A DNA stretch of 26,387 nucleotides from Chloroflexia bacterium (GCA_038252265.1 JBBSAN010000009.1:1-26387); one strand, 5' to 3'. Counted from the stretch's first letter, positions 1-20,006 are shown. The notes: generated by a model not told the origin, from the sequence alone. A program made the numbers and translations.

Positions 1-1089
1 CCCCGTGGTATCGCTCCAACTACCCCGGAATTGCTGGGCGTTGTAGCCCTCGATAAAGAACTGGAGGTTCCCGGTGCGCGGTGCGCGCGTCGGCTGCGGC
101 CCCGGCCCCGCCGGGGTGGGCGTGTTGAAGGGGACCACGCTGAAGCCACCCGCCATTTGGGCCGATTGCGGCGACGTGGTGAGGTACTGGACGGTCCCGG
201 AGAAATTACCAGTGGCCGTGGGCAGGGCCGCCACCGCATACCCGCCCTGGACAGTGGTGTCCCTGCGGGTCACATCCATCGTAAACAGGTCCCCATCAAT
301 CGAGGCGTTCCAGTGGCCCGCAAAGCTACAGTCCGGCGGGAAATTCTGCCCCACCTTCGCACCGCACCACTGCTGGATGCCGCTGGGGGTATTGCGTAAT
401 CCGGTGACGGTGTTGCCGCCCGCGCCGAGGGTCATCGTGAGCGGGCCTGACCCATTCGCTGTCCAGGTGCCGTCAAACCTATCGGTCGTTAGATTGCCGG
501 TCAAGTTGCCACCCGTGGGAACCATCGCATCCTGGAACGTGCCGGTGACACTATTGCCGTTCTGCTCCAGGTGCATGGTGCCGAAGTTCAACACCCAGTC
601 TCCCGCAAAGGGCGTATCAGGCTTGCGCAATACGACGAACAAGACGATCCCGATCACCACCACCAGCAAGACCGCAGCCCCGATCCCGATCCAGAGCCAG
701 GGGATGGGCGGCGGGGGTGGCTTTGGCGGCTGCACGGTAAAAGTGACCGTCGGCCCGAGCGTGAACTCCTCATCCGGGTTGACCTCGCCCACTTCGTCGA
801 AGCGGAAGGTGTAGGTCGCCGGAGGATCGGTGGATTTCGTGGGTGGCGCGGTGGGCGGCACCTTCACGTGTACGGTGTATGACTGGCTGCCCGCTAATGG
901 GAAGTTTCGCGTCTTCTCCCCCTCGATGGTAAACCAGGCTTCCTGCGCAGGATCTGTAGGGGTAATCTTAGCATGGGCATCCAGGGCACGACTAAGCACG
1001 TTGTTCACGGTAAAGACGACCGTCGCCTGGCGTTTATCGTCAAGCTGGATCACGCTGGTCGGGGTGTCAATTGTAAACGGTCCAGGCAT
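1..1089 (-). CDS. Bitopic membrane protein, paralog A (partial; C-terminus lies beyond the window start). Cytoplasmic Ig-like N-domain, Pro-rich linker, one TM helix, extracytoplasmic repeat-containing domain.
   Basis: Manual reverse translation from the ATG at 1089 (cat at 1087-1089), preceded by SD GAGGAGGAG at 4-nt spacing. It gives MPGPFTIDTPTSVIQLDDKRQATVVFTVNN...PPPPPIPWLWIGIGAAVLLVVVIGIVLFVVL...FAGDWVLNFGTMHLEQNGNSVTGTFQD...CSFAGHWN..., open to position 1 with no stop. Clear paralog of the 2794..3918 product (same MPGPFTI start, same domain order). Absent from the ORF track only because it runs off the window edge. Confidence 0.6.
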   Translation of the reverse strand, partial: MPGPFTIDTPTSVIQLDDKRQATVVFTVNNVLSRALDAHAKITPTDPAQEAWFTIEGEKTRNFPLAGSQSYTVHVKVPPTAPPTKSTDPPATYTFRFDEVGEVNPDEEFTLGPTVTFTVQPPKPPPPPIPWLWIGIGAAVLLVVVIGIVLFVVLRKPDTPFAGDWVLNFGTMHLEQNGNSVTGTFQDAMVPTGGNLTGNLTTDRFDGTWTANGSGPLTMTLGAGGNTVTGLRNTPSGIQQWCGAKVGQNFPPDCSFAGHWNASIDGDLFTMDVTRRDTTVQGGYAVAALPTATGNFSGTVQYLTTSPQSAQMAGGFSVVPFNTPTPAGPGPQPTRAPRTGNLQFFIEGYNAQQFRGSWSDTTG

Positions 1090-1367
1090 TGTCTCCTCCT
1101 CTTGGCCTATCGTCTCTACCCGTCATCTACGCAAGGATCCAATCGTCCAGCCTGATCCCGGCAGCGGTTCCTGAGCGGCGGCGGATGGCCGTAACCCCCT
1201 TCTCAGACGGCTCGGCGCGGGGGCGAACGATACACCTGCGGCCCGCGCCAGCGACCCTCGCCCGCCATGCACGCTGCCTAAGCTCCCTTTAGCGCGTTTA
1301 CTCTAGCACATTCGGCCCGTTTTCGCAAGACACCGTTGCTCTTGCCACGCTGAGTATTCCCCGGCGA

Positions 1368-2123
1368 TCAGGTGGGCTTGAGTGCTTTGATCACTGCGAA
1401 TATTGAGCCAATGCCCAGGATCAGGAGCCAGATAACCGCCAGGATCGCGACAATAATCGCGCCAACGCCGTCGGTAATGCTGACCAGGAAGCCCGGCACG
1501 AATCCATGCAGGAAGCTGATGATGATGTTGCCGAGCAGCGAGGTCAGCACCAGCAGGATCAGCCCCTTGTTCTGCAAGAACCGTTGCTGGGCGGCAACCA
1601 GGCTGGCGGCAAAGCCCAGCTTGAGCAACATGATCAGACTTAAGACCGCCGCCGCGCCTTCCCGATTGAAGGAGCCATAGAGTGCGAAGTAGACAATGGT
1701 GCCGAAGGGTACGGCCAGCAGCAACGCGATCATCACAATGACCAGCCCCAGCGCAACAAAGATCATAGCCAGCGCCGCCAGGATCAGCACCACGGTAAAA
1801 ATGCAGGAGGCGCAGCCCTGCAACCGCCCCTGGATCGCCTGCGGCACCAGCAGCGGCAGCGCCGTCAGCACGATGGTAAACAGCAGCACGCCATCGAGCA
1901 GCGCCATATAGGGGATCGCCATGCCTGGTGGCGACTCCGTTTGGGCCAGGGCGTTGACCGCACTGAGATTGTTGATACACTCCGCTCGGCTGTCCTCAGT
2001 CACTTCCGCACAGTTGACGGGCTGTGGCGGGTGCGGCAGGGCCAGCCCCCCGATTTCGATGAGGACGGTGATTGCGATCAATGCTAATGCGAGGAGCAAG
2101 AAGGGTTTTCGCAGACTCTCCAT
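1368..2123 (-). CDS. Polytopic integral membrane protein (251 aa, about 6-7 TM helices), function unknown
   Basis: ATG at 2123 with SD GAGGA 6 nt upstream. Extremely hydrophobic product (MESLRKPFLLLALALIAITVLIEIGG...). Co-directional and tightly spaced with neighbouring minus-strand genes. Overlapping ORFs 1303..1980(-) and 1372..1680(+) are treated as shadows. Confidence 0.6.
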   Translation of the reverse strand: MESLRKPFLLLALALIAITVLIEIGGLALPHPPQPVNCAEVTEDSRAECINNLSAVNALAQTESPPGMAIPYMALLDGVLLFTIVLTALPLLVPQAIQGRLQGCASCIFTVVLILAALAMIFVALGLVIVMIALLLAVPFGTIVYFALYGSFNREGAAAVLSLIMLLKLGFAASLVAAQQRFLQNKGLILLVLTSLLGNIIISFLHGFVPGFLVSITDGVGAIIVAILAVIWLLILGIGSIFAVIKALKPT

Positions 2124-2159
2124 AATCAGTCCTCATTCGTTACGAAGCAGGGTAGCACA

Positions 2160-2651
2160 TCATGGCAGGACCTGAATTCGGCACTGTGTTCCCCCGCTGC
2201 AACTAATGACTAATGTTGCACCCTCGCGGAAGATATCCAGGGACAGCATCGCTGCCGGAGTAGGGTGTGCGGTCATCGTGATCGGTGTCGGGGGCGGCGT
2301 GGGGGGGGGCGGCGTGGAGGGTGCGGGAAATCGTAGCGTCAGGGCCACTGCTTGCACATGGCCCTGCACCGTCTGAAGCCGCAGTTGGCGGGCGGCTGCA
2401 TCCGCCGATTGGACCGTGATCGTGCAGGATGCACCGGAGTTCACCACGATGATATCTGCCTGCACGCATGAGCCAGGGCTAGCGCTCAGCTCCTGGGCCT
2501 TTACCGGCTTTTCCAGCAGCCCCCGGAGCGCAGATGCGCTCGGCGTATTCCCTGGCGGCCCCCCGCCAACAGTGAAGCCCGCCCCGACGCCGCAGAAAAA
2601 GAGCAGGCCCACCAGGACTAGTACACCAATCAAGACTTTTGTTCGGTCCAC
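2160..2651 (-). CDS. Small membrane-anchored/secreted protein (163 aa) with N-terminal TM/signal segment and Pro/Thr-rich stretch
   Basis: GTG start at 2651 (cac 2649-2651) with a strong SD GAGGAGG 5 nt upstream. N-terminus is MDRTKVLIGVLVLVGLLFFCGVGAGF. 37 nt upstream of the 1368..2123 gene. Confidence 0.45.
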   Translation of the reverse strand: MDRTKVLIGVLVLVGLLFFCGVGAGFTVGGGPPGNTPSASALRGLLEKPVKAQELSASPGSCVQADIIVVNSGASCTITVQSADAAARQLRLQTVQGHVQAVALTLRFPAPSTPPPPTPPPTPITMTAHPTPAAMLSLDIFREGATLVISCSGGTQCRIQVLP

Positions 2652-2793
2652 CCTGTCCTCCTCGTTTGGCGCGGCGATCGCCTGCTCTATTCAGCGCGTG
2701 ATCCGCCCGTCCTGCCACCCCATGTACGGCGGGTGCTGGTGAAGGCGACGTTCCCGGCCCCGGCACAGGGTGGGGCAACCGCTTTACGCCTGC

Positions 2794-3918
2794 TCAGGGC
2801 GTTGGCGTCGCGACAGGTTGCCCCGGCCCAAGGAAGGGTTGTGCGAGACTGTCAGACGCGGTTGCGCGTAAGCAAGGGCTGGGCATTGATCCGCCCGGGT
2901 GCCAGCCGCACCACGGCCCAGATCCAGGACCGTAGCTTCCCTGAAACTGCAAGGCATTGTAACCCAGTAAGTACCACCGAAACTGCGAAGTGAACGCCCC
3001 CAGCGTATAAGTGCCATCCAACTGCGTGGCACCTGTGCCATTGTACGAAACCGCTCCGGTTATCGCCCCAGTAGCCGAGACAGCATAAGTGAACACCCCG
3101 GTGACGGTGATTCCCGTGCGGGCAAACGTCGCGGGAAATTGATTAATGCCATCTGTGGTTATCCAGTCCCCGGCAAAATTGCAGCCTGCGGGGAATGGGA
3201 CATTAGCCCGGGCACCACACCACTGGTTGAGACTGTTGCGTCGGCCCGTGATGGTGTTGCCCCCCGCGCCGAGGGTCATGGTGAGCGTACCTGAGCCGTT
3301 CCCGGTCCAGGTGCCGGTGAACGCGCCGTTCGTTGCATCGCCCGTCAACGTGCCGGTCGTGCCATCCATCCCGTCCTGGAACGTGCCGCTGACCCGATTG
3401 CCGTTGTCGGTGAGTTGCATGGTGCCAAAGTTCAGCACCCAGCTTCCCGCAAACCCGGTGGAACGCGGCCAGACGAGGAACGCGATGATCCCGACCACCA
3501 CCAGTAGGGCCACCACGCCCGCCGCGATCCAGACCCAACTGGGGATCTTGGGGGCCGGGGGCGGCGGGGGCGGGGGCGGCAGCACGGCGAAGCTGACCGG
3601 GGGGCCAGCGGTGAAGTTCTCATCGGGGTTGATCTCGTCGGCCAGGTCGAGGCGGAAGGAGTAGGTTCCGGGGGGCGTGGTGGGGGGGACTGTCACCAGC
3701 ACCATGTATTGCTGCGTCCCGGCGACTGCAAAATCGCGCACCGCCGCCCCGTCCAGGGCGAACCACGCTTCCGTCGCCGGATCCTGGGGCGTGACATGGC
3801 CTCGCCCGCGCAGGGCACGCCCGCTATCGTTCGAAACGGTGAACACGGCTTGGGTCTGCCCCTTGTTGTCGAGGTGCAGGGTGTTGGTGGCCGTGGTGAT
3901 CGTGAATGGTCCAGGCAT
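2794..3918 (-). CDS. Bitopic membrane protein, paralog B (374 aa). N-terminal Ig-like cytoplasmic domain, poly-Pro linker, TM helix, C-terminal domain with two FAGxW-containing repeats.
   Basis: ATG at 3918 with SD GGAGGA. MPGPFTITTATNTLHLDNKGQ...PPPPPPPPAPKIPSWVWIAAGVVALLVVVGIIAFLVW...FAGSWVLNFGTMQLTDNGNRVSGTFQDG...CNFAGDWITTDG... No signal peptide, one hydrophobic helix. Confidence 0.65.
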   Translation of the reverse strand: MPGPFTITTATNTLHLDNKGQTQAVFTVSNDSGRALRGRGHVTPQDPATEAWFALDGAAVRDFAVAGTQQYMVLVTVPPTTPPGTYSFRLDLADEINPDENFTAGPPVSFAVLPPPPPPPPAPKIPSWVWIAAGVVALLVVVGIIAFLVWPRSTGFAGSWVLNFGTMQLTDNGNRVSGTFQDGMDGTTGTLTGDATNGAFTGTWTGNGSGTLTMTLGAGGNTITGRRNSLNQWCGARANVPFPAGCNFAGDWITTDGINQFPATFARTGITVTGVFTYAVSATGAITGAVSYNGTGATQLDGTYTLGAFTSQFRWYLLGYNALQFQGSYGPGSGPWCGWHPGGSMPSPCLRATASDSLAQPFLGPGQPVATPTP

Positions 3919-4074
3919 TAAGTCCTCCGTAGAACACTACTCAGCAAATCTTTGCAGGCTGAACTCAGGTTAATAGGTCCGGCGACATGCACAGTGGCAC
4001 TAACGCGTATCAACTCATTAGCCATGTCGGGCCGCGTCGCTAGTCGCGGGGTGCGGCCATCGCCGCCCCTGTTC

Positions 4075-4905
4075 TCAAACAGCCCTTTGTGGCGCTGTCT
4101 CTGTACGTAGATAAAGAAATACACAGCCCGCGACAACTGCCGACAGCAGATGCCAGATGGCATGGCCCTGGAGCAGACTATCGGGGTTGCAGAGCGGTCG
4201 GTCGGTTTGGGATAGTGACCAGATCACCAGGGCGACCGCAAACGTGCCCAGGGCTGCGGCCAGCCAGGGCCAGTCGCGTTGTAACCCCTTGGGCTTGCGC
4301 CACAGAATCACTAGTTCGGTCAGGACCCAGGCAACGACCAGCCCGGTAAAGATCGGGGTGCCGGTGCCGTCTACGAACCAGGTGAAGATACCCAGGGCGG
4401 CGTTCACCACCGCATAGAGCAGCCCGAAGAGGGTGCCCGGCCAGCGGAAAATGCGGGTAAGCGCGTAGAGCAACCCGAAGCTGCCGAACAGGATGAGCGA
4501 GAAGGTATCGATCCAGCCGCCCCACTGGGTGAGAGACCCGTGGAAGAACATGCTTCCTGGGCCGAGAAACAGGGCGACCGCTGCGTAGCCGCTGGCAAAA
4601 TGCGTGGCCGTGGTCATCGGGTTGTTCCGTACTGCGGGACTAGACCGGTCGCTGCCGATCCGCCATAGCAGCAGCAGCCCCACGCCGACAAAGCCGAGAT
4701 TGCTCCATGTGTTCGCCGGTTGTTTGATCAGGGCACCGGGTCGCACAAAGTTTTCGCAATAGCATGTGTTAGGTACGTCGCTCACACAAGAATCGGGCGC
4801 ACCCGGCCAACCGCGGGCCGCGAGGGTGAGGAAGATCGCCAAAAATATAGCGAAGGCCGCCAGGCCCCACCACAATTCCTTGTGTTTGTTGAACGTCGCC
4901 ACCAT
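4075..4905 (-). CDS. Alkaline ceramidase / CREST-superfamily 7-TM hydrolase (276 aa)
   Basis: ATG at 4905. Motifs match alkaline ceramidase signatures: PANTWSNLGFVG (NTxSN), MFFHGSLTQ, WIDTF (Asp), and GHAIWHLLSA (HxxWH). Multi-TM hydropathy. Confidence 0.65.
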   Translation of the reverse strand: MVATFNKHKELWWGLAAFAIFLAIFLTLAARGWPGAPDSCVSDVPNTCYCENFVRPGALIKQPANTWSNLGFVGVGLLLLWRIGSDRSSPAVRNNPMTTATHFASGYAAVALFLGPGSMFFHGSLTQWGGWIDTFSLILFGSFGLLYALTRIFRWPGTLFGLLYAVVNAALGIFTWFVDGTGTPIFTGLVVAWVLTELVILWRKPKGLQRDWPWLAAALGTFAVALVIWSLSQTDRPLCNPDSLLQGHAIWHLLSAVVAGCVFLYLRTETAPQRAV

Positions 4906-5015
4906 TCACCGTCGCCTTTGCTCTGTCGCTGTCTGATCCCGGGGCTGCGTCATCCGCCCGGATCGGACAGCAAGATTATGGCCCTGGACTTAACTTATGC
5001 TGAACGCCATACAGA

Positions 5016-5041
5016 GCGCTCACGAAAGACTTCGTGAGCGC
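5016..5041 (-). terminator. Stem-loop (11-bp perfect stem gcgctcacgaa/ttcgtgagcgc, 4-nt loop) in the 355-bp gap after the CIS operon. No clean U-tract.
   Basis: Read directly: 5016-5026 pairs with 5031-5041. Downstream of the gpI-like stop (5261) on the minus strand. Confidence 0.3.
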
Positions 5042-5260
5042 CCGGAGTGCGGAGTGCGGCAGACCAGGACCCGCCTGGCGCGCGTCCAGTCAAGGCAGGA
5101 TCACCCTACACCTCAACTGCGCCGCTTTTAGATTCGATGCTGGCTGGTTCGGCGCTCACGCGTAGGGGCGCGGCCCAGCAGGTGATCCACGCAGGTTCAG
5201 CGCGAAGTGATCGATGAGACCAGTGGCGAAGATCGGTGCGACCGCGTAGCCCCAGGATGC

Positions 5261-5836
5261 TCATCTTTTTCTCCTTCCCCCACCGCTCAATGTGCGCGGG
5301 GCAGCCGCCGCCGGTTCCATTTGTAGCTCATAGGTGGTGTAGGCAGGTTTTTCCAATTCGATGATTCGCCGGATGAGGTCTTGATAGGCGGCGGCGGCAT
5401 CGGGTGCCCGGATGCGCAGGTGAAAGGGGCGACCCGGCACCTGTTCCTCGATCACAAAGCCGGGCACGCCGGTGGCCGTGACCAGGAAGCGCTGGAGGCC
5501 CTTCGTCGTGCCGCGCCATTGCGCCAGGAAGGCGGCAGCCGCGATCACCTCTCGCAGTCGCCCCAGGCCGCTGGGGAACGGCGGCAGGACTGTCCCGGTG
5601 AACTCCTCGGGCACTTCGACCAGCAGGCGGGCCAGGTCCACCCAGCCCGCCAGGTACGGGATGAATTCGTCGGGGGCGCGGTAGGGATCAAAATAGGCAT
5701 CCAGGTGGGCCAGCACGTCCTCGTCCGGAGCGTGCAGTTCTTCCATCAGGGTCAGCAGCGCCCACAGCGGATTGCCCGGCGTCATCGTGCGCTGGAAAAT
5801 TCCGGGCAGCAGGCGCTCGATCTCCACACGCTTCAT
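5261..5836 (-). CDS. Baseplate protein, phage P2 gpI / Afp12-like (phage tail protein I family)
   Basis: ATG at 5836 overlaps the upstream stop (ATGA). N-terminus LLPGIFQ...NPLWALLTLMEEL...IPYLAGWVDL resembles the gpI family (LLP...LLPWLAW..VD). Final gene of the coupled operon. Confidence 0.75.
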   Translation of the reverse strand: MKRVEIERLLPGIFQRTMTPGNPLWALLTLMEELHAPDEDVLAHLDAYFDPYRAPDEFIPYLAGWVDLARLLVEVPEEFTGTVLPPFPSGLGRLREVIAAAAFLAQWRGTTKGLQRFLVTATGVPGFVIEEQVPGRPFHLRIRAPDAAAAYQDLIRRIIELEKPAYTTYELQMEPAAAAPRTLSGGGRRKR

Positions 5837-8508
5837 GATTCCGGCACCACTTCGATCTGGTGTTCCCCCGAGACAAAGAGCCAGGTTTCCGGCAGGGTCA
5901 CAATGTCGTCCGGGGTCGCGTCACCGCTCGGCACGTAGGTGTCCCCCCCATTGGTGCTGAGGAAGATCCCGCGCTGCCCGCCTACCAACACCAGATTGGC
6001 CCCGCGGCCCACCGCAACCGTATCCACCGGCGCGAGGGTGCTCAGGTCCGACCGCAGCGGCAGGCCATCGGTAATCGTGGATGGCTCCCAGGTGGGGGTG
6101 GGCTTGCCAATGTCCAGCCGGGCCACGCCCCCGTGATGGGACGCGGCCAGCACCATCTGGCGGGGATCTTTCCCCGGCTCCCGCAGGACCAGGAAGGCCA
6201 GCCCGCGCACACTCCCTCCGGTCCACCCCTGGTTGAAGGCCGTCCAGCCGCCCGGTGGGTCCTGCTCGCCGCCTTGCAGCAACTCCCAGCGGAAACAGCC
6301 TTTGCCCGGATCGGTCATGCCGCCGGGCGAGAAGGCCCCGGCCCATAACCAGGCGCGAATCCCATCGACTTGCACGGCCAGTTCCCGAATATCCTGCCCC
6401 TGGATGGCCGGTGTGTTAATAGGCCGGAATGTGCGGCCCCCATCGAATGATAGATAGACCCCGCCCGGATCCTGGGGAGTGCCCCCCATCGGGGCCGCGA
6501 CCGCGAGGGTGAGCTTCCCCTGGGGATCGCGGCGGGTGGTGACGGTATAGAAGCCCAGGTCCTGCTTCCGCCGGTCCACCAGGAGCAACTGGGGACTGCC
6601 GGCATGGTCCGCGGGCAAGTCCAGGTCGTAGAGGCCCTTATCGGTCGCCAACAGCAGGTGCGGTATATCCTCGCGCAACGTCCAGGCCACGTCTTGCACC
6701 TGGAGCGCGATCGTATAGGGGGTCGCCTCCCAGCTTTCCCCGGTATCCCGCGAGATGTACAGGTGGGAACCGCCATTGTTCGCCGCGCGGGTCACGACGA
6801 CGAGCAGGCCCGCCACGTCGGGATGGGCGCGCACCAACGTGATCGACTCGCCCGAAAAGCGCCCCACCACTTCCCAGCCCGCTCCGTCGTTCAGGGAGCG
6901 GAAGAGGGTACCGTTATTGGGCGGCGGATTGGGGGTACCGGGATCCATCCCGATACCGGCGTACCAGGTGTGGGGCTGGAAGGGATCGGCAGCGATCGTG
7001 CTGATCGCGCCTGCGGGCACTTCATCGACGAGCAGCCCTACCTCATCGATCCAGCGCACCCCTGGCTCGGCCAGCGCGATGGCGAAGACGTTGGAGGCCC
7101 GCAAGGCCTGGCCGAACGTCCAGCCACCGGGCCAGCGGGCCGTCGGGAGCGGGTTGATCAGTTCATAGAGGCGGTCCAGGACTCGCTGCTTGACGGCGGT
7201 GGGATTTTCTTCGCGGCGTACGACGATCTTGGCTTGCACCCGCACGGTTTTATACTTGGCCCAATCCGCGATGCAGGCGGTACCCAGAGGCCGGCGCTCC
7301 TCCAGGGTGGTTTGCACCTGATCCTGCGCCGTTTGCGTCTGATGCGCCTGGAGCGCCTCCCGCGTCACCCGCTCGCCCACGCGGTCGGCGGGAGGGAGAT
7401 CGGGCACCAGCACCACTTCCACCGTGCCCGGTTCGGCATACGCCCACAATTCTTTCCGGGTAAACGCTTTGGCCCGGCTGATCGCTCCCAGGGCGCTCTC
7501 CACGGCGAGCCGCTCGAAATCGCGGGCGGTCACGGCGCGTTCCAGCGAGCGGAATTGCTGTGGCCCCCGCACCAGCGCATTCGCCAGGGCCTCCCCATCC
7601 CGTCCGCCGCTGGCCGGCTGGGGATTGGTGACCTGCACACCGGGCAGCGGATCTTTGAGCGTCGTCAGGGTATCCGCGGCCACATTGCCTTCCAGCCCCC
7701 CGCCCCGCCGATACCAGAGCCGAATTTCGCGATCTTTGATCGGCACTTCGGCCAGCGCTGCGGACGGCGCATCGGGCGTCATGCGGGCCGCCGGGGCGAA
7801 GCTGATGGTCCCCTCCATGCGGTCGAGCACATAGACAAAGCGGTCCGGCCCCAGATCCGTGAAGTTCTCGGTCTCGTGCCAGATGTGGTAGAGTTTGCCG
7901 TTATATTCCAGGGCCGGGTCGGGGGGGACTTTGTCTTCCGGGCGAACCTCCACGCCGACCATCAGATCGGGGGGGTGGTCGGTCGGCGCGATGATCGGCA
8001 GGCGGCGCACGGTGATGGTCAGCCCGGGCTGGCCGTTGGCCGTGCCGGCTGGCTCTCCGACCACCAGTTCGCACTGGTACGCCAGCACATCAATGCTGGG
8101 CTGGTTCGCGGGCAATGTGGCACTCTCTACGGTCACAAAGACGGGCGGTGCGGCACCACCGGCACTCCGGCCAACGGTCACCCGGGTGCCAAGCGGAATA
8201 TCAATCGCCGTCGTGGGTTGGCCTGCGCCAGCGGCCCGGCTGAAGCGGAGCAGCGTTTGCGCGGCAGCGGGGGGCTGCCGGTGGACACCCAGCAGGTTCA
8301 GCAGTTCGATGTACACCTTCTCCGGGACGCGATTCAGCCGGTAGATCAGCGCCTCGGTCAGATAGGCAAAGAGATCCAGCAGCACGATGCCGGGATCGCT
8401 GGGCGACGTATCGGTCCAGGCGGGGCAGAGTTGGGGAATGCGTTGGCGCTCCTCATCCACCAACTGTTGCCAGGTGCGATCATCCAGGTTGGGCGAAGGG
8501 AGAGGCAT
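5833..8508 (-). CDS. Baseplate J-like protein (gp6/gpJ/Afp11-like), 891 aa, with a C-terminal BNR/Asp-box beta-propeller extension
   Basis: N-terminus DRTWQQLVDE...PAWTDTSPSDPGIVLLDLFAYLTEALIYRLN is typical of the baseplate_J family. The C-terminal ~400 aa carry repeated S-x-D-x-G-x-T-W/Y/F motifs (SLNDGAGWE, SRDTGESWE, SFDGGRTFR, STNGGDTYV). Start overlaps the gp25 stop (TGATG). Confidence 0.85.
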   Translation of the reverse strand: MPLPSPNLDDRTWQQLVDEERQRIPQLCPAWTDTSPSDPGIVLLDLFAYLTEALIYRLNRVPEKVYIELLNLLGVHRQPPAAAQTLLRFSRAAGAGQPTTAIDIPLGTRVTVGRSAGGAAPPVFVTVESATLPANQPSIDVLAYQCELVVGEPAGTANGQPGLTITVRRLPIIAPTDHPPDLMVGVEVRPEDKVPPDPALEYNGKLYHIWHETENFTDLGPDRFVYVLDRMEGTISFAPAARMTPDAPSAALAEVPIKDREIRLWYRRGGGLEGNVAADTLTTLKDPLPGVQVTNPQPASGGRDGEALANALVRGPQQFRSLERAVTARDFERLAVESALGAISRAKAFTRKELWAYAEPGTVEVVLVPDLPPADRVGERVTREALQAHQTQTAQDQVQTTLEERRPLGTACIADWAKYKTVRVQAKIVVRREENPTAVKQRVLDRLYELINPLPTARWPGGWTFGQALRASNVFAIALAEPGVRWIDEVGLLVDEVPAGAISTIAADPFQPHTWYAGIGMDPGTPNPPPNNGTLFRSLNDGAGWEVVGRFSGESITLVRAHPDVAGLLVVVTRAANNGGSHLYISRDTGESWEATPYTIALQVQDVAWTLREDIPHLLLATDKGLYDLDLPADHAGSPQLLLVDRRKQDLGFYTVTTRRDPQGKLTLAVAAPMGGTPQDPGGVYLSFDGGRTFRPINTPAIQGQDIRELAVQVDGIRAWLWAGAFSPGGMTDPGKGCFRWELLQGGEQDPPGGWTAFNQGWTGGSVRGLAFLVLREPGKDPRQMVLAASHHGGVARLDIGKPTPTWEPSTITDGLPLRSDLSTLAPVDTVAVGRGANLVLVGGQRGIFLSTNGGDTYVPSGDATPDDIVTLPETWLFVSGEHQIEVVPES

Positions 8509-9029
8509 CAGATCTTTTCTCCTGCGAGGCTGAATGAGTAAGTCAACAATTGAATGCGCTGTGAGGTCCGTAAGCGATATTCGAGCAGCAGATCCAGGCG
8601 TTCTGGGACCTCGACACTGCGGCGCGCATCCAACCGGACCACTTCGATGCGCGGCTCCCAGCGGGCCAGCGCACTGCGGACGTAGTGAATCGCCAGGCCG
8701 GCGGTGGTGTCATCATTCGGCGCAAATACCAGGCGGTGCAAATGGCAGCCGTACGCCGGGCGCATGACGCGCTCGCCCGGCACCGTGGAGAGGAGCAGAA
8801 AGATGGCCTGCCGGATTGCCTCCTCTCCTTCGACCAGCGCCATGCCCCCGCGCACGTTCACTTGCAGCCCGCTCACCTGATCCGCAGTGGCGGCACCGGT
8901 CTCCGCCTCTGTGACCAGCGCCATGCCCCCGCGCATCTCCACCTGTGACCGGGTTCCCTCTGCCGGGGCACCGGCACTGGCGTGCAGGAATTGCCAGGTG
9001 CGATAACGGGGTCCGTTCGTGCCGTTCAT
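8508..9029 (-). CDS. Baseplate wedge protein gp25 / GPW-like (Afp9-like)
   Basis: IRQAIFLLLSTVPGERVMRPAYGCHLHRLVFAPND...ALARWEPRIEVVRL matches the GPW/gp25 signature. ATG at 9029 overlaps the upstream stop (ATGA). The N-terminal region contains an internal duplication. Confidence 0.85.
   Translation of the reverse strand: MNGTNGPRYRTWQFLHASAGAPAEGTRSQVEMRGGMALVTEAETGAATADQVSGLQVNVRGGMALVEGEEAIRQAIFLLLSTVPGERVMRPAYGCHLHRLVFAPNDDTTAGLAIHYVRSALARWEPRIEVVRLDARRSVEVPERLDLLLEYRLRTSQRIQLLTYSFSLAGEKI
8832..8935. repeat. 23-bp perfect direct repeat (gaccagcgccatgcccccgcgca) at 8832-8854 and 8913-8935, period 81 bp. An in-frame tandem duplication inside the gp25-like gene.
   Basis: Read directly. Encodes the duplicated peptide ...RGGMALV... 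(VEMRGGMALVTEAE / VNVRGGMALVEGEE) in the N-terminal extension. Confidence 0.85.
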
Positions 9030-9376
9030 AGCTTCGTTTCCACCAATGTTTGGCCGGGGCTTCGTACTTTGTACTTAAACGTGCCTGACATCATGCCGTC
9101 GGTCAGGCCGGTGACCGTGTCGAGGCAGATGGGGTGGCCGTTGATCCGCAACAGGCCCGAATAGCCCGCGTCCACGGTCAGGGTATGCTGGCACGGCGGG
9201 CCGCCAGGGACGGGTGGAAAGGGCAGGGGGCAGCCGGAGATGGTGCGGCCTTTGGGATCCGCCTCCACCAGCACCTTCCGTCCGGCCACCCGCACCAGGC
9301 TTTGTGACGGCTGATTCTTCACATGCCCCAGTTCGTGCTCGCAGACCAGCACCGCGTCTTCAGTCAGAATTTTCAT
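9026..9376 (-). CDS. PAAR-like (DUF4280-like) spike-tip protein, 116 aa
   Basis: Cys/His-rich (C12, H14, H18, C49, C62, H64, H82, C85). LLRINGHPICLDTVTG resembles the PAAR 'xINGxPAAR' segment. Sits between the spike and gp25 genes. Stop is adjacent to the VgrG-like stop/start. Confidence 0.55.
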   Translation of the reverse strand: MKILTEDAVLVCEHELGHVKNQPSQSLVRVAGRKVLVEADPKGRTISGCPLPFPPVPGGPPCQHTLTVDAGYSGLLRINGHPICLDTVTGLTDGMMSGTFKYKVRSPGQTLVETKL

Positions 9377-10897
9377 CTAAGCCTGCTCAAAGTTGATCGC
9401 CTTGCCTTGAATCAGGATGCTGTGACCGGGCGCTTCGATCACCAGGTCGGTTTCGGCGTGGATCAGGACCTTGCCAGGCGCTAATTCGACATAACTGCCA
9501 TCAATGGTCGCCATATGGACGATCTTGTGTTCGTCGTCGAATTGCACATATTGGCCGCCGGGGGTGCGCAGGGTGTAACGGCGGATCGCGCCACCCGCGA
9601 CGCCATCGTCGGGCGGCTTCTGGGTGCCGTACAGGCCTCCGAGGATCAACGCTTGGCCGGGATCTTCATGCGCGAAGAGCACCAGGACCTGATCTCCGAC
9701 ATCCGGCAGCGCGACGAGGCCTTTGCCCGGTCCCGCACCCGGCACGACCACCCCCAACCATTCGGTTTCCACATCCTCGTAGGCCGAGAGCTTGACGCGC
9801 ACTCGCCCCAACTCATCGGGATCGTCCACCTGCGTGACCACGCCCGGACTGGCGGTGGCGCGGCGCGTGGGGGTCTGGGCTGGTGGGGCATCGCTGGACA
9901 GTTCGGACACAAACCCTAGCTGCGGGTCAATGGTGTGCGTGACGGTGGTCAGCACATAGCGCCCGGCGACGGCGGTTGCCACACCGTCTATCTCCACCAG
10001 GCTACCCGGTTGGAGGCGCGGGTCGCCGTCGGCCACGCCCCAGAAGGTCACCTCGCGGGCGACACGCCGGTCCAGTTCGGCCTGGGCCAGCCCCTCGGCG
10101 TGCGGATCGTCCGGCGCGATAGCATCCACCAGATCGCGCTTGCCGCTCCCGCCGACCCGGTCGGGCGGCACCGTTGCGGGGGCGGTCCGGCCTACCCGCG
10201 CTGTGCTGGCGTGCCCCGTGTGGGTCTCGATACGCTGCGAATTCCAGCCGATGGTCGTCACTTCGTGGCAGGCCGGATCCCCGTTGACTTCCAGCCGCGC
10301 CTCAAGCAGCGCCTGGCCCAGGGTGAGGGGGAGCGGATCGCCCATTCCGTCGAGGGTGATCAGGTGCAATGTCGTTTCCCGCACGGTGAGGTACAACCCG
10401 CAGCGCTCGGCCACACCGACCAGCAGTTCCAGGTCCGATTGGCCCCACTGGAACAGCCGGGGCCAGTGCGGGCCGTCCACTACCGCTGCAACGGTCAGGC
10501 CGAGATCGCCGGCCAGCTCCTGGGCCAGATCGCGCACGGTCACCTGAACATGGGCGCGTACCGGTTGGCGCTTGCGCAGCCGGTGCAGCATGTCGTAACC
10601 CCGGACACGGACAGCGCGCTCGTGGGCAGGGCCATAGACATGCTCTACCGCCGTGACCTCGCCGACAAAGAGGGGCGGGCCGCTGCCAGGCACACGGACC
10701 CGCAGGCCCGCCCCCGGCTCCAGGCCACTGAACATGGTCAACGGGCCGGGAGGATCGGCGAAGGTCAGTTCGCACAGGGTCGGCATCGACAGGCGTTGCT
10801 GCACGCGCACCGCCGCCAGGTCGCGCGCCTGGTCGGCGGCCAGGGGCGTGCCGTCCACCTCAACCGTGACCTGGGGTAAGCCAAAGATCTGGCTCAT
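9377..10897 (-). CDS. Central spike protein, phage late-control gpD / VgrG-like (Afp8-like), 506 aa, with no C-terminal effector domain
   Basis: GRYVLTTVTHTIDPQLGFVSELS (gpD signature), followed by a gp5-like OB region and a C-terminal beta-helical region (VLVLFAHEDPGQALILGGLY...). ATG overlaps the upstream stop (ATGA). Confidence 0.85.
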   Translation of the reverse strand: MSQIFGLPQVTVEVDGTPLAADQARDLAAVRVQQRLSMPTLCELTFADPPGPLTMFSGLEPGAGLRVRVPGSGPPLFVGEVTAVEHVYGPAHERAVRVRGYDMLHRLRKRQPVRAHVQVTVRDLAQELAGDLGLTVAAVVDGPHWPRLFQWGQSDLELLVGVAERCGLYLTVRETTLHLITLDGMGDPLPLTLGQALLEARLEVNGDPACHEVTTIGWNSQRIETHTGHASTARVGRTAPATVPPDRVGGSGKRDLVDAIAPDDPHAEGLAQAELDRRVAREVTFWGVADGDPRLQPGSLVEIDGVATAVAGRYVLTTVTHTIDPQLGFVSELSSDAPPAQTPTRRATASPGVVTQVDDPDELGRVRVKLSAYEDVETEWLGVVVPGAGPGKGLVALPDVGDQVLVLFAHEDPGQALILGGLYGTQKPPDDGVAGGAIRRYTLRTPGGQYVQFDDEHKIVHMATIDGSYVELAPGKVLIHAETDLVIEAPGHSILIQGKAINFEQA

Positions 10898-11667
10898 GTT
10901 TGCTCCATCTGGCCCGCCACCGGTGGGATACGCAGCACCATCCCGGCGGCCAGCCGAAACGGATCAATAATGTCATTATAGATCGCCAGCAAGCGCCAGG
11001 CATCGGCGCGGCCAAAGTAGGTGTAGGCGAGCAGATCCAGTCGCTCGCCGGTGCCCGGCTCTTCCCCGTCGCCTCCCCCCTGGATCTCGTGGAACAGGTC
11101 GCCGTTTCCCACGTCCGGGGGGAGTTCCGCTGGGTTCTCCGGCACGGGCGGCAGCATCTCCAGAAAATCCGCCGGATCGGGCGGGGGCGTGGTTGTTTCC
11201 GGCGTGCTGGGTTCGCGCACGCGGAGCAGCCGCAGGCGCATCCACGAGCGCTGCGCGGCCCCGGTCGCGCTGAATTGCTCGAGCCGTTCTGCCACCGCCG
11301 TGATCACCCCCGGCACGTTCCAGGCCTTACCCCACACAAAACGCACCACTGGGGGCTGACCATACCCATCTCTGCCGGTCCCGTTCTCGGCCAGATTCCA
11401 GAGCGGGGCGGTGAGATCACGCACATCTTCAGTGGTGATGGAGGCACCGCCCAGGTTGATATCGAAGAGCAAGTCCATTTCGAGTTCCGTCCGCCCGCCC
11501 CCGGTGTAGAGCAGCGGATCATCGGCCAGCCCGGTCCCGGTCAGTTGCCCGCCCGCCGACCGGCGGGGCCGCACGCCCGCCAGCCGGCGCATCACCAGTG
11601 TATCGGGGTTCAGCAAACAGGTCAGTGTTTCGTTGCGCTCTTCGAGAAGAAAGGCTACGCGCTCCAT
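10894..11667 (-). CDS. Tube-initiator / baseplate hub protein with C-terminal LysM-like domain (Afp7/Pvc7/gpX-like)
   Basis: C-terminus ERLDLLAYTYFGRADAWRLLAIYNDIIDPFRLAAGMVLRIP fits the LysM consensus. Position immediately 5' of the gpD-like gene is as in P2 (X-D) and eCIS (afp7-afp8). Confidence 0.7.
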   Translation of the reverse strand: MERVAFLLEERNETLTCLLNPDTLVMRRLAGVRPRRSAGGQLTGTGLADDPLLYTGGGRTELEMDLLFDINLGGASITTEDVRDLTAPLWNLAENGTGRDGYGQPPVVRFVWGKAWNVPGVITAVAERLEQFSATGAAQRSWMRLRLLRVREPSTPETTTPPPDPADFLEMLPPVPENPAELPPDVGNGDLFHEIQGGGDGEEPGTGERLDLLAYTYFGRADAWRLLAIYNDIIDPFRLAAGMVLRIPPVAGQMEQT

Positions 11668-13016
11668 TCGAGGCCTCGCTGTTCACGGTCTAGCCGCTGG
11701 AGCCGTTCCCAGGCGCGCAGGGCCACGGCCAGATCGTCGCCGGGCAGCGGGTCCTCGTCCGGCAGGGTGGGCCAGGGAGAACGCAGCCCTGCCTGCTCAA
11801 TCGCAGCCATGCCCGCAGGCGGGGAGGGAGTTGTCTGGGGGGCCATGCGGGGCCGCCGCGCCGGGCCAGGCGGTGATACCCTGGACACCCACTCTTCCTG
11901 GTTGACCTCCGGCCAGACCAACATCTCCAGGGGCGGAGCGGCGGTGACCGGCCCTCGTCTCGCCGCAGAAAAAGGAGAACGCCCGGCTTCCGCAGTCGTG
12001 GCGAACCGGGTCCACCCCGGCGCGCTCTCAGCTGGTCGGGCCGGGTGTACGGCCTCATGCCCTCCCGACTCGGCCTGCGGCCCTACCGGGACCACGCCCC
12101 TACCGGCAAGGGGAGGCGGTTTTGTCCGCCCGCCCGCTCTATCTCGCGGGGGCGGCAGGCGTTGCCCGGTTGGGGCGGGTCTGCCTCGCTCCGGCGGTCG
12201 TTCCGGCGTTTCTGCCAACCCTGGATCGAGCGCGGGCGGCTGGCCTTCTGCGGTCACCCGATCGGCCCTGGTGACGGCGCGGGGCGCTGCCTGCTGCGGC
12301 GGGATCGCCGCTCCCCTTTCCAGCGCCCCGCCGGCGCGGCCTGTGGCTCTGGCCCACGCCCCCTGTTCGAACGAGATCCCTCGTTCGGACTCGGGCCTGT
12401 GGGGCGGCTCCGTCCCCCTGACCCCGGCCCATCGGGTCGCTGGCGTTGGCCGTGGTGCCGCCGGGACCCCAGAACCTGTTGCGCCTGCGCGCCGGGCGGC
12501 AGGAGCAGGCGTGGCCTGCGGCTGTGCCAGTTCCGGCGGAGTTCCTGTCCGCCAGGGCGCCAGGATATCGGGCATCCGGAAGTTCCACAAGTTCCGCCCG
12601 GTTCCCGCTACGGGCCGAGCCGATACCCGCCGGCCCGGATGGCGGCGTCCCGCCGCTGGCCGGCCGGTGCGCCCCGCGTCCCCGGTCAGGGTGGGGGGAC
12701 GCACGCGGGCGGCTGGTCTGCTCGCGCCACCCCCGCTGGCCGGGCGGATGGCCGCGCCGGGCGGTGACCCGGTCGTGCTTCCCGAAGTAATCAGGGAGCC
12801 ATCGTCGGTGAGCAGTTCGGGTGCCCTGGCCCGGATGTCGGCCAGCCAATGGGCCGGGGGACCCGCCGAAGCAGGACGGGAGTCCCCCGAGGCTCCCTCC
12901 GGGCGGCGGGTCGTTGGCCGGTCGCTGTTCGCTTGCTGTAGCGCAAAGATCGTCAAGCGCCGCAGCGGGCGGGCCAGCACGCGCCAGCAAAAGGTCCAGA
13001 AAGCATGGGTAGCCAT
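11655..13016 (-). CDS. Pro/Ala/Arg-rich hypothetical protein (453 aa) in the tape-measure position. Reading frame uncertain in this stretch.
   Basis: ATG at 13016 lies 4 nt after the tube stop. The ORF exactly fills the tube-to-LysM gap and overlaps the LysM gene start by 13 nt. N-terminus (MATHAFWTFCWRVLARPL...) and C-terminus (...DDLAVALRAWERLQRLDREQRGLEWSA) look protein-like; the middle is low complexity. Several alternative frames are also open here (12139..12990-, 12045..12767+). Confidence 0.35.
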   Translation of the reverse strand: MATHAFWTFCWRVLARPLRRLTIFALQQANSDRPTTRRPEGASGDSRPASAGPPAHWLADIRARAPELLTDDGSLITSGSTTGSPPGAAIRPASGGGASRPAARVRPPTLTGDAGRTGRPAAGRRHPGRRVSARPVAGTGRNLWNFRMPDILAPWRTGTPPELAQPQATPAPAARRAGATGSGVPAAPRPTPATRWAGVRGTEPPHRPESERGISFEQGAWARATGRAGGALERGAAIPPQQAAPRAVTRADRVTAEGQPPALDPGLAETPERPPERGRPAPTGQRLPPPRDRAGGRTKPPPLAGRGVVPVGPQAESGGHEAVHPARPAESAPGWTRFATTAEAGRSPFSAARRGPVTAAPPLEMLVWPEVNQEEWVSRVSPPGPARRPRMAPQTTPSPPAGMAAIEQAGLRSPWPTLPDEDPLPGDDLAVALRAWERLQRLDREQRGLEWSA

Positions 13017-13020
13017 GCGC

Positions 13021-13461
13021 TCAGGCTCGCTCTAGCGTCTCGAACACCAGGGTCAACTGCTCAATCGCGGCCTCATGGGTGAGCGCGTTAAGCACGGCAC
13101 CCCGCCACTCGGCGGGCCAGGCGTTCACCAGATCCCAGCGGGTCAGCTCGGCCACCCCGTCGCTGTCGAGCATCAGGATCGACACATTCTTGCGATCCAC
13201 CTTGCCCTTCACGGCGGTCATAAACCAGTCCCACAGTTCGTGGGAGGCCGTCAGGCCATAGCTGAGGGTGACATCGCCATACTCGACCGGGCCGGGCAGC
13301 ACATGGGTGACCTGGCTTTGCCCCCCCTCCCGATATTTGATGGCGTGTACTTTGATGCCGATGCCGGTGCATTCGGTGAAATGCCCTTCGGTCACGCCCG
13401 CGATGACGAGCTTGAAGTTGTAACCCCGATAGGGTTCTGTGTACGTCCCAGGATTAGGCAT
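13021..13461 (-). CDS. Contractile tail tube protein (T4 gp19 / Afp1-Afp5 / Hcp-like family), 146 aa
   Basis: YRGYNFKLVIAGV...FTECTGIGIKVHAIKYREGG... has a typical tube-protein length and pattern. ATG at 13461 with SD GGAGGG. Overlaps the sheath stop by 8 nt. Confidence 0.9.
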   Translation of the reverse strand: MPNPGTYTEPYRGYNFKLVIAGVTEGHFTECTGIGIKVHAIKYREGGQSQVTHVLPGPVEYGDVTLSYGLTASHELWDWFMTAVKGKVDRKNVSILMLDSDGVAELTRWDLVNAWPAEWRGAVLNALTHEAAIEQLTLVFETLERA

Positions 13462-14743
13462 TGTTCCCTCCTGCTGGCGCGGTCTGGGTGCTCACGGCAC
13501 CGGCCCACTGGCTGATGCGGAAGATGATAAACTCGGCGGGTTTAACCGGCGCGATCCCGATCAGAATCACAACCATCCCAGCGTCGATGATATCCGGGGT
13601 ATTGGTCTCTTCATCGCATTTGACAAAGAAGGCCTGCTCGGGGGTTTGGCCCAGCAAGGCTCCATCCCGCCAGATCCGGGTGAGGAAGGCGCTGACATCG
13701 CGGCGAATGGATTTCCAGAGGGTCCGATCATTCGGCTCGAACACGATCCAGCGGGTGTTGTCCGCAATCGACTCCTCAATCATATTGAAGAGGCGGCGCA
13801 CGTTCAGATAGCGCCATTCGCTGGCGCTGGCGGCCAGCGTGCGCGCCCCCCAGACGCGGATGCCCTCGCGGACGAAGAAGCGGATGCAGTTGACGCCCGC
13901 CTGGTTTAGCTCGCCCTGCTCGTCGCGGGTCAGCCGGTAGGTGACATCCAGTGCGCCCCGCACGGTCTCATTGGCCGGGGCCTTATGCACCCCGCGGGTT
14001 GCATCGCTCCGCGCCCAGATCCCGGCCATATGCCCGGATGGGGGCACCGACACCAGATCGTTGGTGGTTGCCAGCGGATCCCGCACCAGGATATTGGGGA
14101 AATAGTAGGCACCATAGCCGCCGTCTGACTGGCGGGCGCGCAACCCGGTCTGATCTCCGCCTGCCGCCGGGGCTGCCGGGGGCGATCCGGCCCCGCCGTC
14201 TGCGGGGGTGCCGCCGCCCGCCGGTGGGGTGCCCCCACCCCCGCTTTTCTTCGCCTTTGGCGTGGCAACCTGGGTTAAGTCGTCAATATTCGTGACATCC
14301 GGCGGCGCGTCGAGGATCGCCACCCGATCTTTGAGCCGTTCACAATGGGTGAGCAGGGCATCATAGCTCGCGGCATCCGTATAGCCGGGCGCAGCGACGA
14401 TGGCGATCTCGTCGATGGCCTCGAAGAGATCTAACCCGCTGCGGGTGCGCCCGCCGCCGGTGATCGCGCCCCCCGCCCCGACATTGCAAACGTAGCAACG
14501 GCTGCCGCCATTCTGAAAGAAGCCATACACCGCGTGGGCGAGCGGGGTGCTGGCCGTACTGCCGACGGCGAACGTGTTGACAAATTGCGTCCAATTATTG
14601 ATCGCCATAGCGACATTCACCGGCGCATTGGGGTCCGGGGCCACGCCAATAAAGCCTGCGGTACTGGTGCCTACCGCCTCAATAGGTCGCCCGCCACCAG
14701 GGACCTCTTCGACATAAATATCCGGTGCTAAGTAGGTCGGCAT
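13454..14743 (-). CDS. Contractile tail sheath protein (429 aa) with a Gly/Pro-rich surface insertion
   Basis: MPTYLAPDIYVEEVPGG... is the canonical sheath N-terminus (xYxAPGVYVEE). The ATG at 14743 has a perfect SD AAGGAGG 6 nt upstream. The ORF-track start at 14761 is a TTG. Confidence 0.9.
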   Translation of the reverse strand: MPTYLAPDIYVEEVPGGGRPIEAVGTSTAGFIGVAPDPNAPVNVAMAINNWTQFVNTFAVGSTASTPLAHAVYGFFQNGGSRCYVCNVGAGGAITGGGRTRSGLDLFEAIDEIAIVAAPGYTDAASYDALLTHCERLKDRVAILDAPPDVTNIDDLTQVATPKAKKSGGGGTPPAGGGTPADGGAGSPPAAPAAGGDQTGLRARQSDGGYGAYYFPNILVRDPLATTNDLVSVPPSGHMAGIWARSDATRGVHKAPANETVRGALDVTYRLTRDEQGELNQAGVNCIRFFVREGIRVWGARTLAASASEWRYLNVRRLFNMIEESIADNTRWIVFEPNDRTLWKSIRRDVSAFLTRIWRDGALLGQTPEQAFFVKCDEETNTPDIIDAGMVVILIGIAPVKPAEFIIFRISQWAGAVSTQTAPAGGNNA

Positions 14744-14757
14744 ACTATCCCTCCTTA

Positions 14758-16192: not shown

Positions 16193-16229
16193 TAGACTTC
16201 CGCACAAATGTTCGCTATAATGGAGGTAT
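16193..16229 (+). promoter_or_regulatory. Sigma70-like promoter: TAGACT (-35, 16193-16198), 17-bp spacer, TATAAT (-10, 16216-16221). It would give a leaderless or very short-leader transcript starting at the ATG at 16228.
   Basis: Read directly. The GGAGG at 16222-16226 is only 1 nt from the ATG, so it cannot act as an SD. Confidence 0.35.
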
Positions 16230-18446: not shown

Positions 18447-18501
18447 TGTATACCTTCTTTCTGCGGTGGGGGCCGTGCGGTGGCCCCGGATCGCCACCGC
18501 G

Positions 18502-19948: not shown

Positions 19949-20006
19949 AATGGAGAATGCCGGAGGATGGCTCCATGGGGTATCGGGGTATTCAGAGGAG
20001 ACACAC

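Follow-up and report, generated by a model that had tools for sequence, protein, structure and literature searches.

The subject of this analysis is a contractile injection system (CIS) of type IId, and the group of membrane protein genes beside it, on a contig from a Chloroflexia bacterium (GCA_038252265.1 JBBSAN010000009.1:1-26387). The whole stretch of 26,387 nucleotides that was analysed is here called the window. The structural operon of the CIS occupies positions 15507..5261 on the minus strand, and five membrane protein genes follow on the same strand after the last baseplate gene. These encode a ceramidase/CREST-family hydrolase of 276 aa (4075..4905), a bitopic protein of 374 aa termed paralog 1 (2794..3918), S163, a 163-aa protein with an N-terminal signal-anchor (residues 1-31) followed by an extracytoplasmic domain (2160..2651), M251, a 251-aa protein with six transmembrane (TM) segments and a cation-diffusion-facilitator-like fold (1368..2123), and paralog 2, of which 363 aa are visible before the C-terminus is cut by the contig end (1..1089). 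On the evidence of sequence and gene order, region 1-4905 is a dedicated membrane accessory module of type IId CIS, a lineage of Streptomyces, Chloroflexota and Deinococcota that is cytoplasmic in the members imaged so far. That the module serves docking or triggering of the CIS at the cell envelope is given a probability of roughly 0.5. A preliminary description of the region had listed two paralogs, a ceramidase and two small membrane proteins immediately downstream of the CIS operon and on its strand. All five genes were confirmed on the minus strand and are the next ones after the baseplate genes, but a gap of 355 bp with a stable hairpin intervenes, and of the two proteins called small only the single-pass S163 is so, M251 being a six-TM protein.

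MPGPFTI opens both paralogs, which share 46% identity over 367 aa (E = 6e-88); in each, a poly-proline linker is followed by one strong TM segment (peak Kyte-Doolittle 19-residue mean 3.1-3.35). A near-identical locus, L001, contains the full-length version of paralog 2, a protein of 386 aa (P0005), followed by convergent lanthipeptide genes; the module therefore ends with paralog 2. Outside L001 and a second near-identical locus, L002, the nearest relative of paralog 2 is paralog 1, and the sequences point to a lineage-specific duplication as the origin of the pair.

An AlphaFold model of paralog 1 was built from a 12-sequence alignment (mean pLDDT 83.9). Read from the N-terminus along the minus strand, it consists of a beta-sandwich at residues 1-112 (nt 3583-3918) with pLDDT blocks of 85-95, a linker with poly-proline and the motif FPWW, a TM helix at residues 128-149 (nt 3472-3537), two 8-stranded up-and-down barrels at residues 158-236 (nt 3211-3447) and 250-339 (nt 2902-3171), and a disordered tail. 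The same layout of N-domain, TM segment and twin barrels is found in paralog 2. The two barrels are only weakly alike in sequence (35% over 68 aa, pairwise E = 1e-6) and correspond to the FAGxW repeats that had been noted before. The preliminary description had thus been correct in the paralogy with its identical start, in the beta-rich N-domain, in the poly-proline linker and in the single TM segment; its two repeats are borne out as barrels, except that the second lacks a literal GTFQD. The avidin/streptavidin fold is an eight-stranded up-and-down barrel, and such barrels make up the modelled ectodomain, which is predicted to be two disulfide-bearing avidin-like beta-barrels. The barrels gave no match to the Pfam avidin family, and their identity to avidin-family chains was 10-18%.

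The N-domain common to both paralogs is immunoglobulin (Ig)-like, about 115 aa long, free of Cys and N-terminal, and no model in Pfam, NCBIfam or PHROGs covers it; searches of NCBIfam and PHROGs with all module proteins returned zero matches. An exhaustive profile search found 2,205 clusters (50% identity) with the N-domain at E<=1e-3 and 1,641 at E<=1e-10. Among the 150 best matches, 144 have the start of the domain at residue six or earlier, and the proteins that carry it span 118-988 aa. Across phyla the N-domains are 45-55% identical, and the C-domains are 24-31% identical or replaced. PASTA was the ectodomain in 54 of the 130 top representatives; PG_binding, PD40 propellers, Laminin_G_3, CARDB, PKD, Big and CBM domains were found among the others. 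The full-length twin-barrel form is rare (37 matches). One group of these matches has only the N-domain and TM segment in common with it, followed by PASTA and Laminin_G, by PG_binding_1, by other domains or by nothing, and the other group consists of secreted lipoproteins sharing only the barrel domain. The paralogs are accordingly members of a large unannotated family, composed of an Ig-like N-domain, a Pro-rich linker, a TM segment and an interchangeable ectodomain; the conserved FPWW motif ends the linker ahead of the TM segment.

The topology of the family, with the N-terminus inside and the C-terminus outside (N-in/C-out), is well supported by sequence features. The TM segment comes directly after the N-domain in 235 of 254 members, and 60 of the 254 are tail-anchored and consist of N-domain and TM segment only. 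The N-domain holds on average 0.09 Cys, compared with 2.84 after the TM segment, and is without Cys in 129 of 139 members. After the TM segment, 91 proteins have an even number of Cys and 15 an odd number. Lys and Arg together (K+R) average 1.99 before the TM segment and 1.41 after it. The orientation is deduced from these Cys and K+R skews, from the extracytoplasmic types of domain, from the tail-anchored variants and from the barrels carried behind lipoprotein signal peptides. The single TM segment per paralog and the predicted orientation agree with the topology that had been proposed for the pair.

Linkage of the N-domain family to CIS was assessed in several sets of loci. A hand-made degenerate DNA pattern for the motif Y-x-F-R-L-D...N-P-D-E was run on metagenomes, and all 77 of the 77 loci caught by it encode an N-domain. 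Where these metagenomic loci had at least 2.5 kb of upstream sequence, Tail_P2_I was located directly upstream in 14 out of 16, and the median gap between Tail_P2_I and the N-domain gene was 99 bp (35 loci). A gene-order census with iterated local hidden Markov models (HMMs) over 85 loci gave a canonical order of BaseJ (the Baseplate_J protein), Tail_P2_I, N-domain genes (1-5 copies), S163 and M251, the last of these on either strand. In the window, the ceramidase gene is located between Tail_P2_I and the first N-domain gene. The carriers include Chloroflexota, Deinococcus, Actinomycetota, Acidobacteriota and Paracoccus. The canonical order was also present in Deinococcus metalli and on the fully annotated plasmid p96k of Deinococcus sp. 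AJ005, in an Anaerolineales and a Bryobacterales metagenome-assembled genome (MAG), on the contig of a 910-aa DUF11-type N-domain member and, reached via M251, in an Actinobacteria MAG, an Ardenticatenales MAG and a 5.6-Mb contig. A scan of genome contigs gave only two loci. In Paracoccus sp. MC1862 an N-domain PASTA gene lies, by its coordinates, about 550 bp downstream of BaseJ. Synteny with Tail_P2_I is seen in no fewer than five phyla and on essentially all contigs of sufficient length. A check of co-occurrence had been called for in the preliminary description, and a family broadly distributed in genomes lacking CIS and never beside CIS genes is not what was found; the family is tied to CIS.

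In D. metalli (L084, 10001-10944), a 126-aa N-domain gene and a 188-aa PASTA open reading frame (ORF) overlap by 4 bp, and Deinococcus sp. AJ005 has one 319-aa gene; the split in D. metalli is probably a frameshift or sequencing error.

Among the partner proteins, the ceramidase matched PF05875 at residues 59-267 (E = 1.4e-12, 48.0 bits against a cut-off of 32.5), and the three motifs NTWSN(65), FFHGS(120) and HAIWH(248) were all present as earlier described. The Zn-site and catalytic motifs of the CREST/ACER3 proteins are S-x-x-x-H, D and H-x-x-x-H, and all of these are found in the window protein. Residues C50, E51, N65, W67, S68, N69, S118, H122, D133, H248 and H252 are invariant in eight CIS-linked homologues, which are otherwise only 19-25% identical to each other. 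A search of PDB with phmmer gave no direct match of the ceramidase to any chain. A profile of the CIS-linked copies was needed, and it found SID-1 (8e-6) and ACER3 (0.036); S118, H122, D133, H248 and H252 align with the same motifs in SID-1. Proteins of this family have seven TM helices; the hydropathy scan of the window ceramidase flagged six segments, the helix with NTWSN being under the threshold. Since the CREST/ACER motifs are kept across such divergence, the sequences argue for a retained enzymatic activity.

The ceramidase family is present in only 11 of the 85 loci and is an optional member of the module, of which S163 and M251 are the conserved core; the central place that the ceramidase had been given did not hold. 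S163, detected by an iterated HMM in 32 of the 85 loci and always after the last N-domain gene, has an invariant R88, keeps C151/C157 in 26 of 30 sequences and has no match in Pfam, NCBIfam or PHROGs. For M251 the number of homologues is 675 or more. Its invariant polar residues are D77, H206 and D218, and its chain ends after TM6. A further multi-TM protein of about 300 aa with a HEFVH (HExxH) motif recurs in 13 loci and is absent from the window. In the two Deinococcus loci L084 (8908-9822) and L089 (12849-13766) this protein is encoded between Tail_P2_I and the N-domain gene, the slot that in the window is taken by the ceramidase, another membrane Zn-hydrolase. Three protein families are newly defined by this analysis, for which there is no Pfam, NCBIfam or PHROG model.

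The genes of the CIS operon, as recognised by Pfam, encode in order a Pvc16-like cap, sheath, tube, a 453-aa protein, a CIS_tube/LysM-like protein, VgrG, a 116-aa protein, gp25, Baseplate_J (5833-8508) and Tail_P2_I (5261-5836), all on the minus strand. The sheath is 65% and BaseJ 46% identical to the counterparts in D. metalli, and the N-terminus of BaseJ is 44% identical to residues 1-117 of Cis11 in S. coelicolor; by its sheath and this N-terminus the window CIS is a close kin of these systems. BaseJ has 891 aa and ends in a BNR/sortilin-type propeller. This extension (aa ~500-890) co-occurs with the N-domain type of module. The window BaseJ was covered in full length in Deinococcus sp. AJ005, Paracoccus, Rhodovulum and metagenomic loci, whereas the match with BaseJ of Streptomyces and D. 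grandis stops at about aa 493. No N-domain was found in Rhodovulum by single-sequence tblastn. The propeller is a candidate for the docking surface.

The gap of 355 bp between Tail_P2_I and the ceramidase contains a 13-bp perfect hairpin with a 4-nt loop at 5014..5043 on the minus strand (inverted repeat 5016-5026 / 5031-5041). Its centroid energy is -23.6 kcal/mol (z = -3.7), and none of 200 shuffles was equally stable. No T-run follows. The hairpin may be an attenuator or an element of RNA stability, or it may separate transcription of the membrane module. Scans of positions 1-5900 for promoters and terminators gave nothing above the shuffled expectation, and an Rfam scan of the window found a single distant tRNA and nothing else. 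A putative 52-aa ORF is also located in the gap (5106-5264, minus strand), with an ATG overlapping the Tail_P2_I stop (ATGA), and in an 80%-identical JGI contig this gap was assigned an 85-aa ORF by a gene caller.

Elsewhere in the window, the 453-aa ORF between the tube and CIS_tube genes (11655-13016, minus strand) lies in a stretch of about 75% GC and has no family match, and judged by its position it may be a tape-measure or tube-lumen protein. Upstream of the CIS are a radical-SAM/HhH protein (16096-17412, plus strand), an uncharacterised 351-aa protein (17442-18497), an SPFH/Band-7 protein (18502-19452) and an MCP-signal protein (19866-21458, plus strand). Four small paralogs of 110-122 aa are encoded in tandem on the minus strand (23490-23858, 23868-24203, 24491-24832 and 24954-25286). 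Three of the four have repeated N-terminal PTRRL(D/N) motifs and the fourth has not; the one at 23490-23858 matches Zn_ribbon_13/DUF2082, and a tRNA (23348-23418, minus strand) adjoins the cluster.

How a cytoplasmic CIS finds the membrane and decides to fire is an open question, to which CisA gives an answer for Streptomyces only. CisA (Sco4242), whose gene follows those of the baseplate, is a membrane protein without which CIS-Sc does not fire, and its cytoplasmic part was proposed to bind Cis11 (Casu et al. 2025, PMC12237407). The CIS of Chloroflexota and Deinococcota are without close cisA homologues, as was stated for Roseiflexus in a 2026 hot-spring study. In the proposed mechanism, the N-domain proteins would be inserted as ordinary signal-anchored membrane proteins, and their cytoplasmic N-domains would bind the periphery of the baseplate, either the Cis11-propeller or Cis12, and so tether the cytoplasmic CIS to the membrane. 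The ectodomains would keep the complex in place at the cell wall or report on the condition of the wall, and docking would license firing into the envelope, where the membrane site to be breached would be formed by, or be a target of, S163, M251 and the lipid hydrolase. Baseplate binding and triggering are steps that we infer; the roles of S163, M251 and the ceramidase are suggested by linkage, fold and conservation of motifs. Residence in the membrane is favoured because a hydrophobic signal-anchor, ectodomains of the PASTA, peptidoglycan (PG)-binding and lectin types and paired Cys imply a stable insertion with the C-terminus outside, because proteins that keep their N-terminus and vary their C-terminus, encoded in the tail-fibre slot, match the way in which fibres attach to a baseplate, because a cytoplasmic CIS depends on a membrane partner, as CisA demonstrates, and because the systems of Chloroflexota and Deinococcota have no close cisA homologues. 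By analogy, the paralogs are proposed to be functional counterparts of CisA and not its homologues.

We also consider, tentatively and with more doubt than confidence, a more specific version in which the N-domain proteins are outside-in triggers: the PASTA, PG-binding, lectin or barrel ectodomain would read wall damage or a ligand at the wall, the conserved FPWW-TM segment would pass on the signal, and the Ig domain would engage the baseplate. If so, firing of a cytoplasmic contractile machine would be controlled by an envelope sensor, in analogy with the coupling of PASTA to a kinase in PknB; the breached site would be made up of S163 and the CDF-like M251, and several paralogs would provide one machine with several inputs. 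The name effector would then be a misnomer for the whole superfamily of proteins resembling Sco4256 of Streptomyces, to which the N-domain proteins are remotely related.

Several points weigh against docking and triggering. The contact between N-domain and baseplate is itself presumed, and the cytoplasmic state is borrowed from imaged IId members, the window CIS being known from its genes alone. The BNR propeller of BaseJ could itself be the receptor-binding part of an extracellular particle. The positive-inside bias around the TM segment is modest. In the loci L007 and L052 an N-domain-PASTA gene is present but the 3-3.5 kb upstream of it contain no CIS gene, and in L052 none is found across its whole 11 kb. 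In comparisons of the Sco4256 type with the N-domain type, hmmsearch gave nothing in either direction, which leaves a remote homology only. The only described relatives, Sco4256-4258, were moreover interpreted as cargo effectors on the grounds of toxicity and of empty tubes on deletion (PMC10066040).

These relatives give rise to the main rival, according to which the paralogs are CIS cargo effectors, with the N-domain serving for loading, the TM segment and C-terminal domain damaging the membrane or wall of the producer upon firing, and S163, M251 and the ceramidase acting as co-effectors or immunity factors. The preliminary description had offered effector/immunity or lysis-associated factors as alternatives to a CisA-like adaptor, and the first of these stands close to the published label, since Sco4256, Sco4257 and Sco4258 were termed 'CIS-associated effectors' (Casu et al. 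2023, PMC10066040) and the Sco4256 family a 'putative toxin' (Vladimirov et al. 2023, PMC10020575). Experimental support of real weight comes from S. coelicolor, where the triple deletion of sco4256-4258 left 85% of tube lumens empty against 3% in the wild type and phenocopied the CIS deletion, and where the three proteins were found to be toxic in E. coli (PMC10066040); Sco4256 is in addition present in purified particles (PMC10020575). The window proteins share the architecture of Sco4256-4258, the minimal members with N-domain and TM segment could be small membrane-active toxins, and an intact lipid hydrolase suits a setting of cell death. The last point also applies to the caspase (Peptidase_C14) and CHAT genes that, together with TPR or WD40, adjoin N-domain or M251 genes in the two unrelated loci L052 (417-1301, 5672-8641) and L085 (5425-8621), an association that fits regulated cell death. 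Storage in a tube lumen is, however, hard to square with paired-Cys PASTA, PG-binding or lectin ectodomains behind a hydrophobic signal-anchor, which would lead to co-translational insertion, and with members as long as 910-988 aa. The genes are moreover in the tail-fibre slot and not among cargo genes, and toxicity in E. coli was also reported for CisA (PMC12237407), so that it does not discriminate. The cargo explanation is hence regarded as a real but rather doubtful possibility. For deletion mutants, the docking or triggering model and the cargo model predict opposite outcomes, both in lumen filling and in the state of contraction.

The remaining explanations fare less well. As a lysis or release cassette for an extracellular CIS, the proteins would open the envelope of the producer and no docking would take place. 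An M23 peptidase near the module in D. metalli, the Amidase_2/SLT wall hydrolase of L052, the PG-binding ectodomains that are common in the family and the transporter- or channel-like fold of M251 would agree with such a role. It is improbable in view of the imaged IId members, which are not released, of the inconsistent presence of PG hydrolases, and of the cytoplasmic Ig domain, 115 aa long and conserved in as many as five paralogs, which is atypical of lysis cassettes; no holin, endolysin or spanin signature was detected in the window module with Pfam, NCBIfam or PHROGs. Very unlikely are true tail fibres or receptor-binding proteins of a released particle, in which the hydrophobic segment would be internal to the fibre or membrane-inserting. 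The gene position after the gpJ/gpI homologues, the conserved N-terminus with variable C-termini that include carbohydrate-binding domains, and the reading of Sco4242 as a fibre by Vladimirov et al. (PMC10020575) speak for fibres, but each paralog has the strong TM segment described above with Lys/Arg ahead of it, tail-anchored variants have no distal domain, and the AlphaFold model contains no trimeric fibre fold, only a globular Ig domain, a TM helix and barrels. A Foldseek search of the viral structures in BFVD gave generic Ig matches only (E>=3e-4, TM-score ~0.2) and no specific phage-fibre match. That the paralogs are ordinary envelope proteins next to a CIS by chance is close to refuted by the synteny with Tail_P2_I, even with L007 and L052 as loci without CIS genes nearby; in L052 the N-domain-PASTA gene is accompanied by a ceramidase gene and by genes for caspase, WD40, CHAT-TPR and amidase/SLT.

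The membrane module is a concrete and widespread candidate for the means of docking or triggering in lineages without CisA, and cultured carriers are at hand in Deinococcus sp. AJ005 (p96k), D. metalli and Paracoccus sp. MC1862. That PASTA and other wall-binding ectodomains are so prevalent suggests residence in the membrane and bears on whether Sco4256-4258 really are injected cargo. The window also links a lipid hydrolase of the ceramidase type to a CIS; in a literature search no paper was found that connects CIS with PASTA or ceramidase.

Compared with other known systems, the 54 PASTA members among the 130 representatives resemble the PASTA sensors (PknB/StkP-type kinases and PBP2x) in being single-pass proteins with extracellular PASTA and a cytoplasmic output domain. 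In the sensors a kinase or transpeptidase takes the place of the Ig-like module, and the window pair carries barrels and not PASTA. The ceramidase shares with ACER3, PAQR and SID-1 (CREST) the invariant N-x-W-S-N, S-x-x-x-H, D and H-x-x-W-H and a PF05875 score above threshold, but is bacterial and CIS-linked. M251 is like the cation diffusion facilitator (CDF) transporters (ZnT/SLC30, YiiP) in fold alone, with 12-13% identity; it has no Pfam Cation_efflux match, no cytoplasmic C-terminal domain and no HxxxD/DxxxD pairs in its invariant set. With the tail fibres of phages and extracellular CIS, the N-domain genes have in common the position after the gpJ/gpI homologues.

A match with CisA had been suggested in the preliminary description, and it stands for topology and gene slot and fails for homology. 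CisA residues 1-310, the cytoplasmic region and TM segment, were taken from eLife supplement 14 and read as a zinc ribbon, a long disordered region, a second zinc ribbon and the TM segment. BLASTP of this sequence against paralog 1 gave E = 3.5 and hhalign against the N-domain profile a probability of 0.1%; homology was rejected, and the likeness is thus confined to gene position and topology. Like the N-domain genes, cisA is located directly after the cis11/cis12 baseplate genes of a IId CIS, and CisA is bitopic with the N-in/C-out orientation that is predicted for the window proteins. It differs in its cytoplasmic part, which is disordered with two zinc ribbons and about 285 aa long against a folded, Cys-free Ig domain of about 115 aa, in its C-terminal domain, which resembles substrate-binding or carbohydrate-degrading domains and is predicted to be pentameric against twin 8-stranded barrels, and in being a single gene, whereas the window type has 1-5 paralogs and two conserved partners. 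A 395-aa protein about 10 kb upstream of the CIS operon (25198-26385, minus strand) has an N-terminal zinc ribbon, a Pro/Ala-rich linker, one TM segment and a helical C-terminal domain, a layout as in the cytoplasmic half of CisA. As a CisA homologue it was rejected, only the zinc ribbon being aligned (11/19 residues, E = 8e-5).

The Sco4256-4258 proteins are a better precedent for the window paralogs than CisA. Vladimirov et al. described a pilus-chaperone-like domain 1, a TM domain 2 and a lectin- or toxin-like domain 3, and found Sco4256 homologues in IId clusters of Actinobacteria, Cyanobacteria, Chloroflexi and Deinococcus deserti (PMC10020575); a ricin lectin is the C-terminal domain in two of the three S. 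coelicolor proteins (PMC10066040). Both types have several paralogs per IId cluster, a similar N-terminus, one TM segment and a variable C-terminal domain, which in Sco4256-4258 is carbohydrate-binding or lectin. Their N-regions are alike in adopting a PapD-like Ig fold and share the PDB neighbours 5GHU, 2QSV, 5DFK, 7PTB and 2CO7, and as the Sco4256 type is rarely found outside CIS loci, so the N-domain genes are CIS-adjacent in nearly all informative contigs. The Sco4256 type differs in having two Ig domains with the TM segment at ~245, where the window type has one domain and the TM segment at ~130, and its genes are at the far upstream end of the Streptomyces cluster and not in the tail-fibre slot; PASTA ectodomains are not reported for the Streptomyces family. 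A profile of seven Streptomyces/Kitasatospora Sco4256 homologues from plasmid-borne clusters was compared by hhalign with 123 N-domains and gave 73% (E = 3e-5) over 99 columns comprising the entire first Ig domain, against only 15% with the 13-sequence profile and 6.5% for a single sequence. No close Sco4256 homologues were found by HMM in loci of the window type. A Streptomyces cluster with CisA and a Sco4256 homologue was searched and contained no N-domain, S163, M251 or ceramidase, and the CIS of D. grandis, which imaging showed to be cytoplasmic, comes with the Sco4256 type in place of the N-domain type. By profile comparison the window N-domain is a remote relative of the N-region of Sco4256-4258, and as judged from sequence the window proteins are not a new CisA but form, with conserved partners of their own, a distant branch of the Sco4256-like superfamily that had gone unrecognised.

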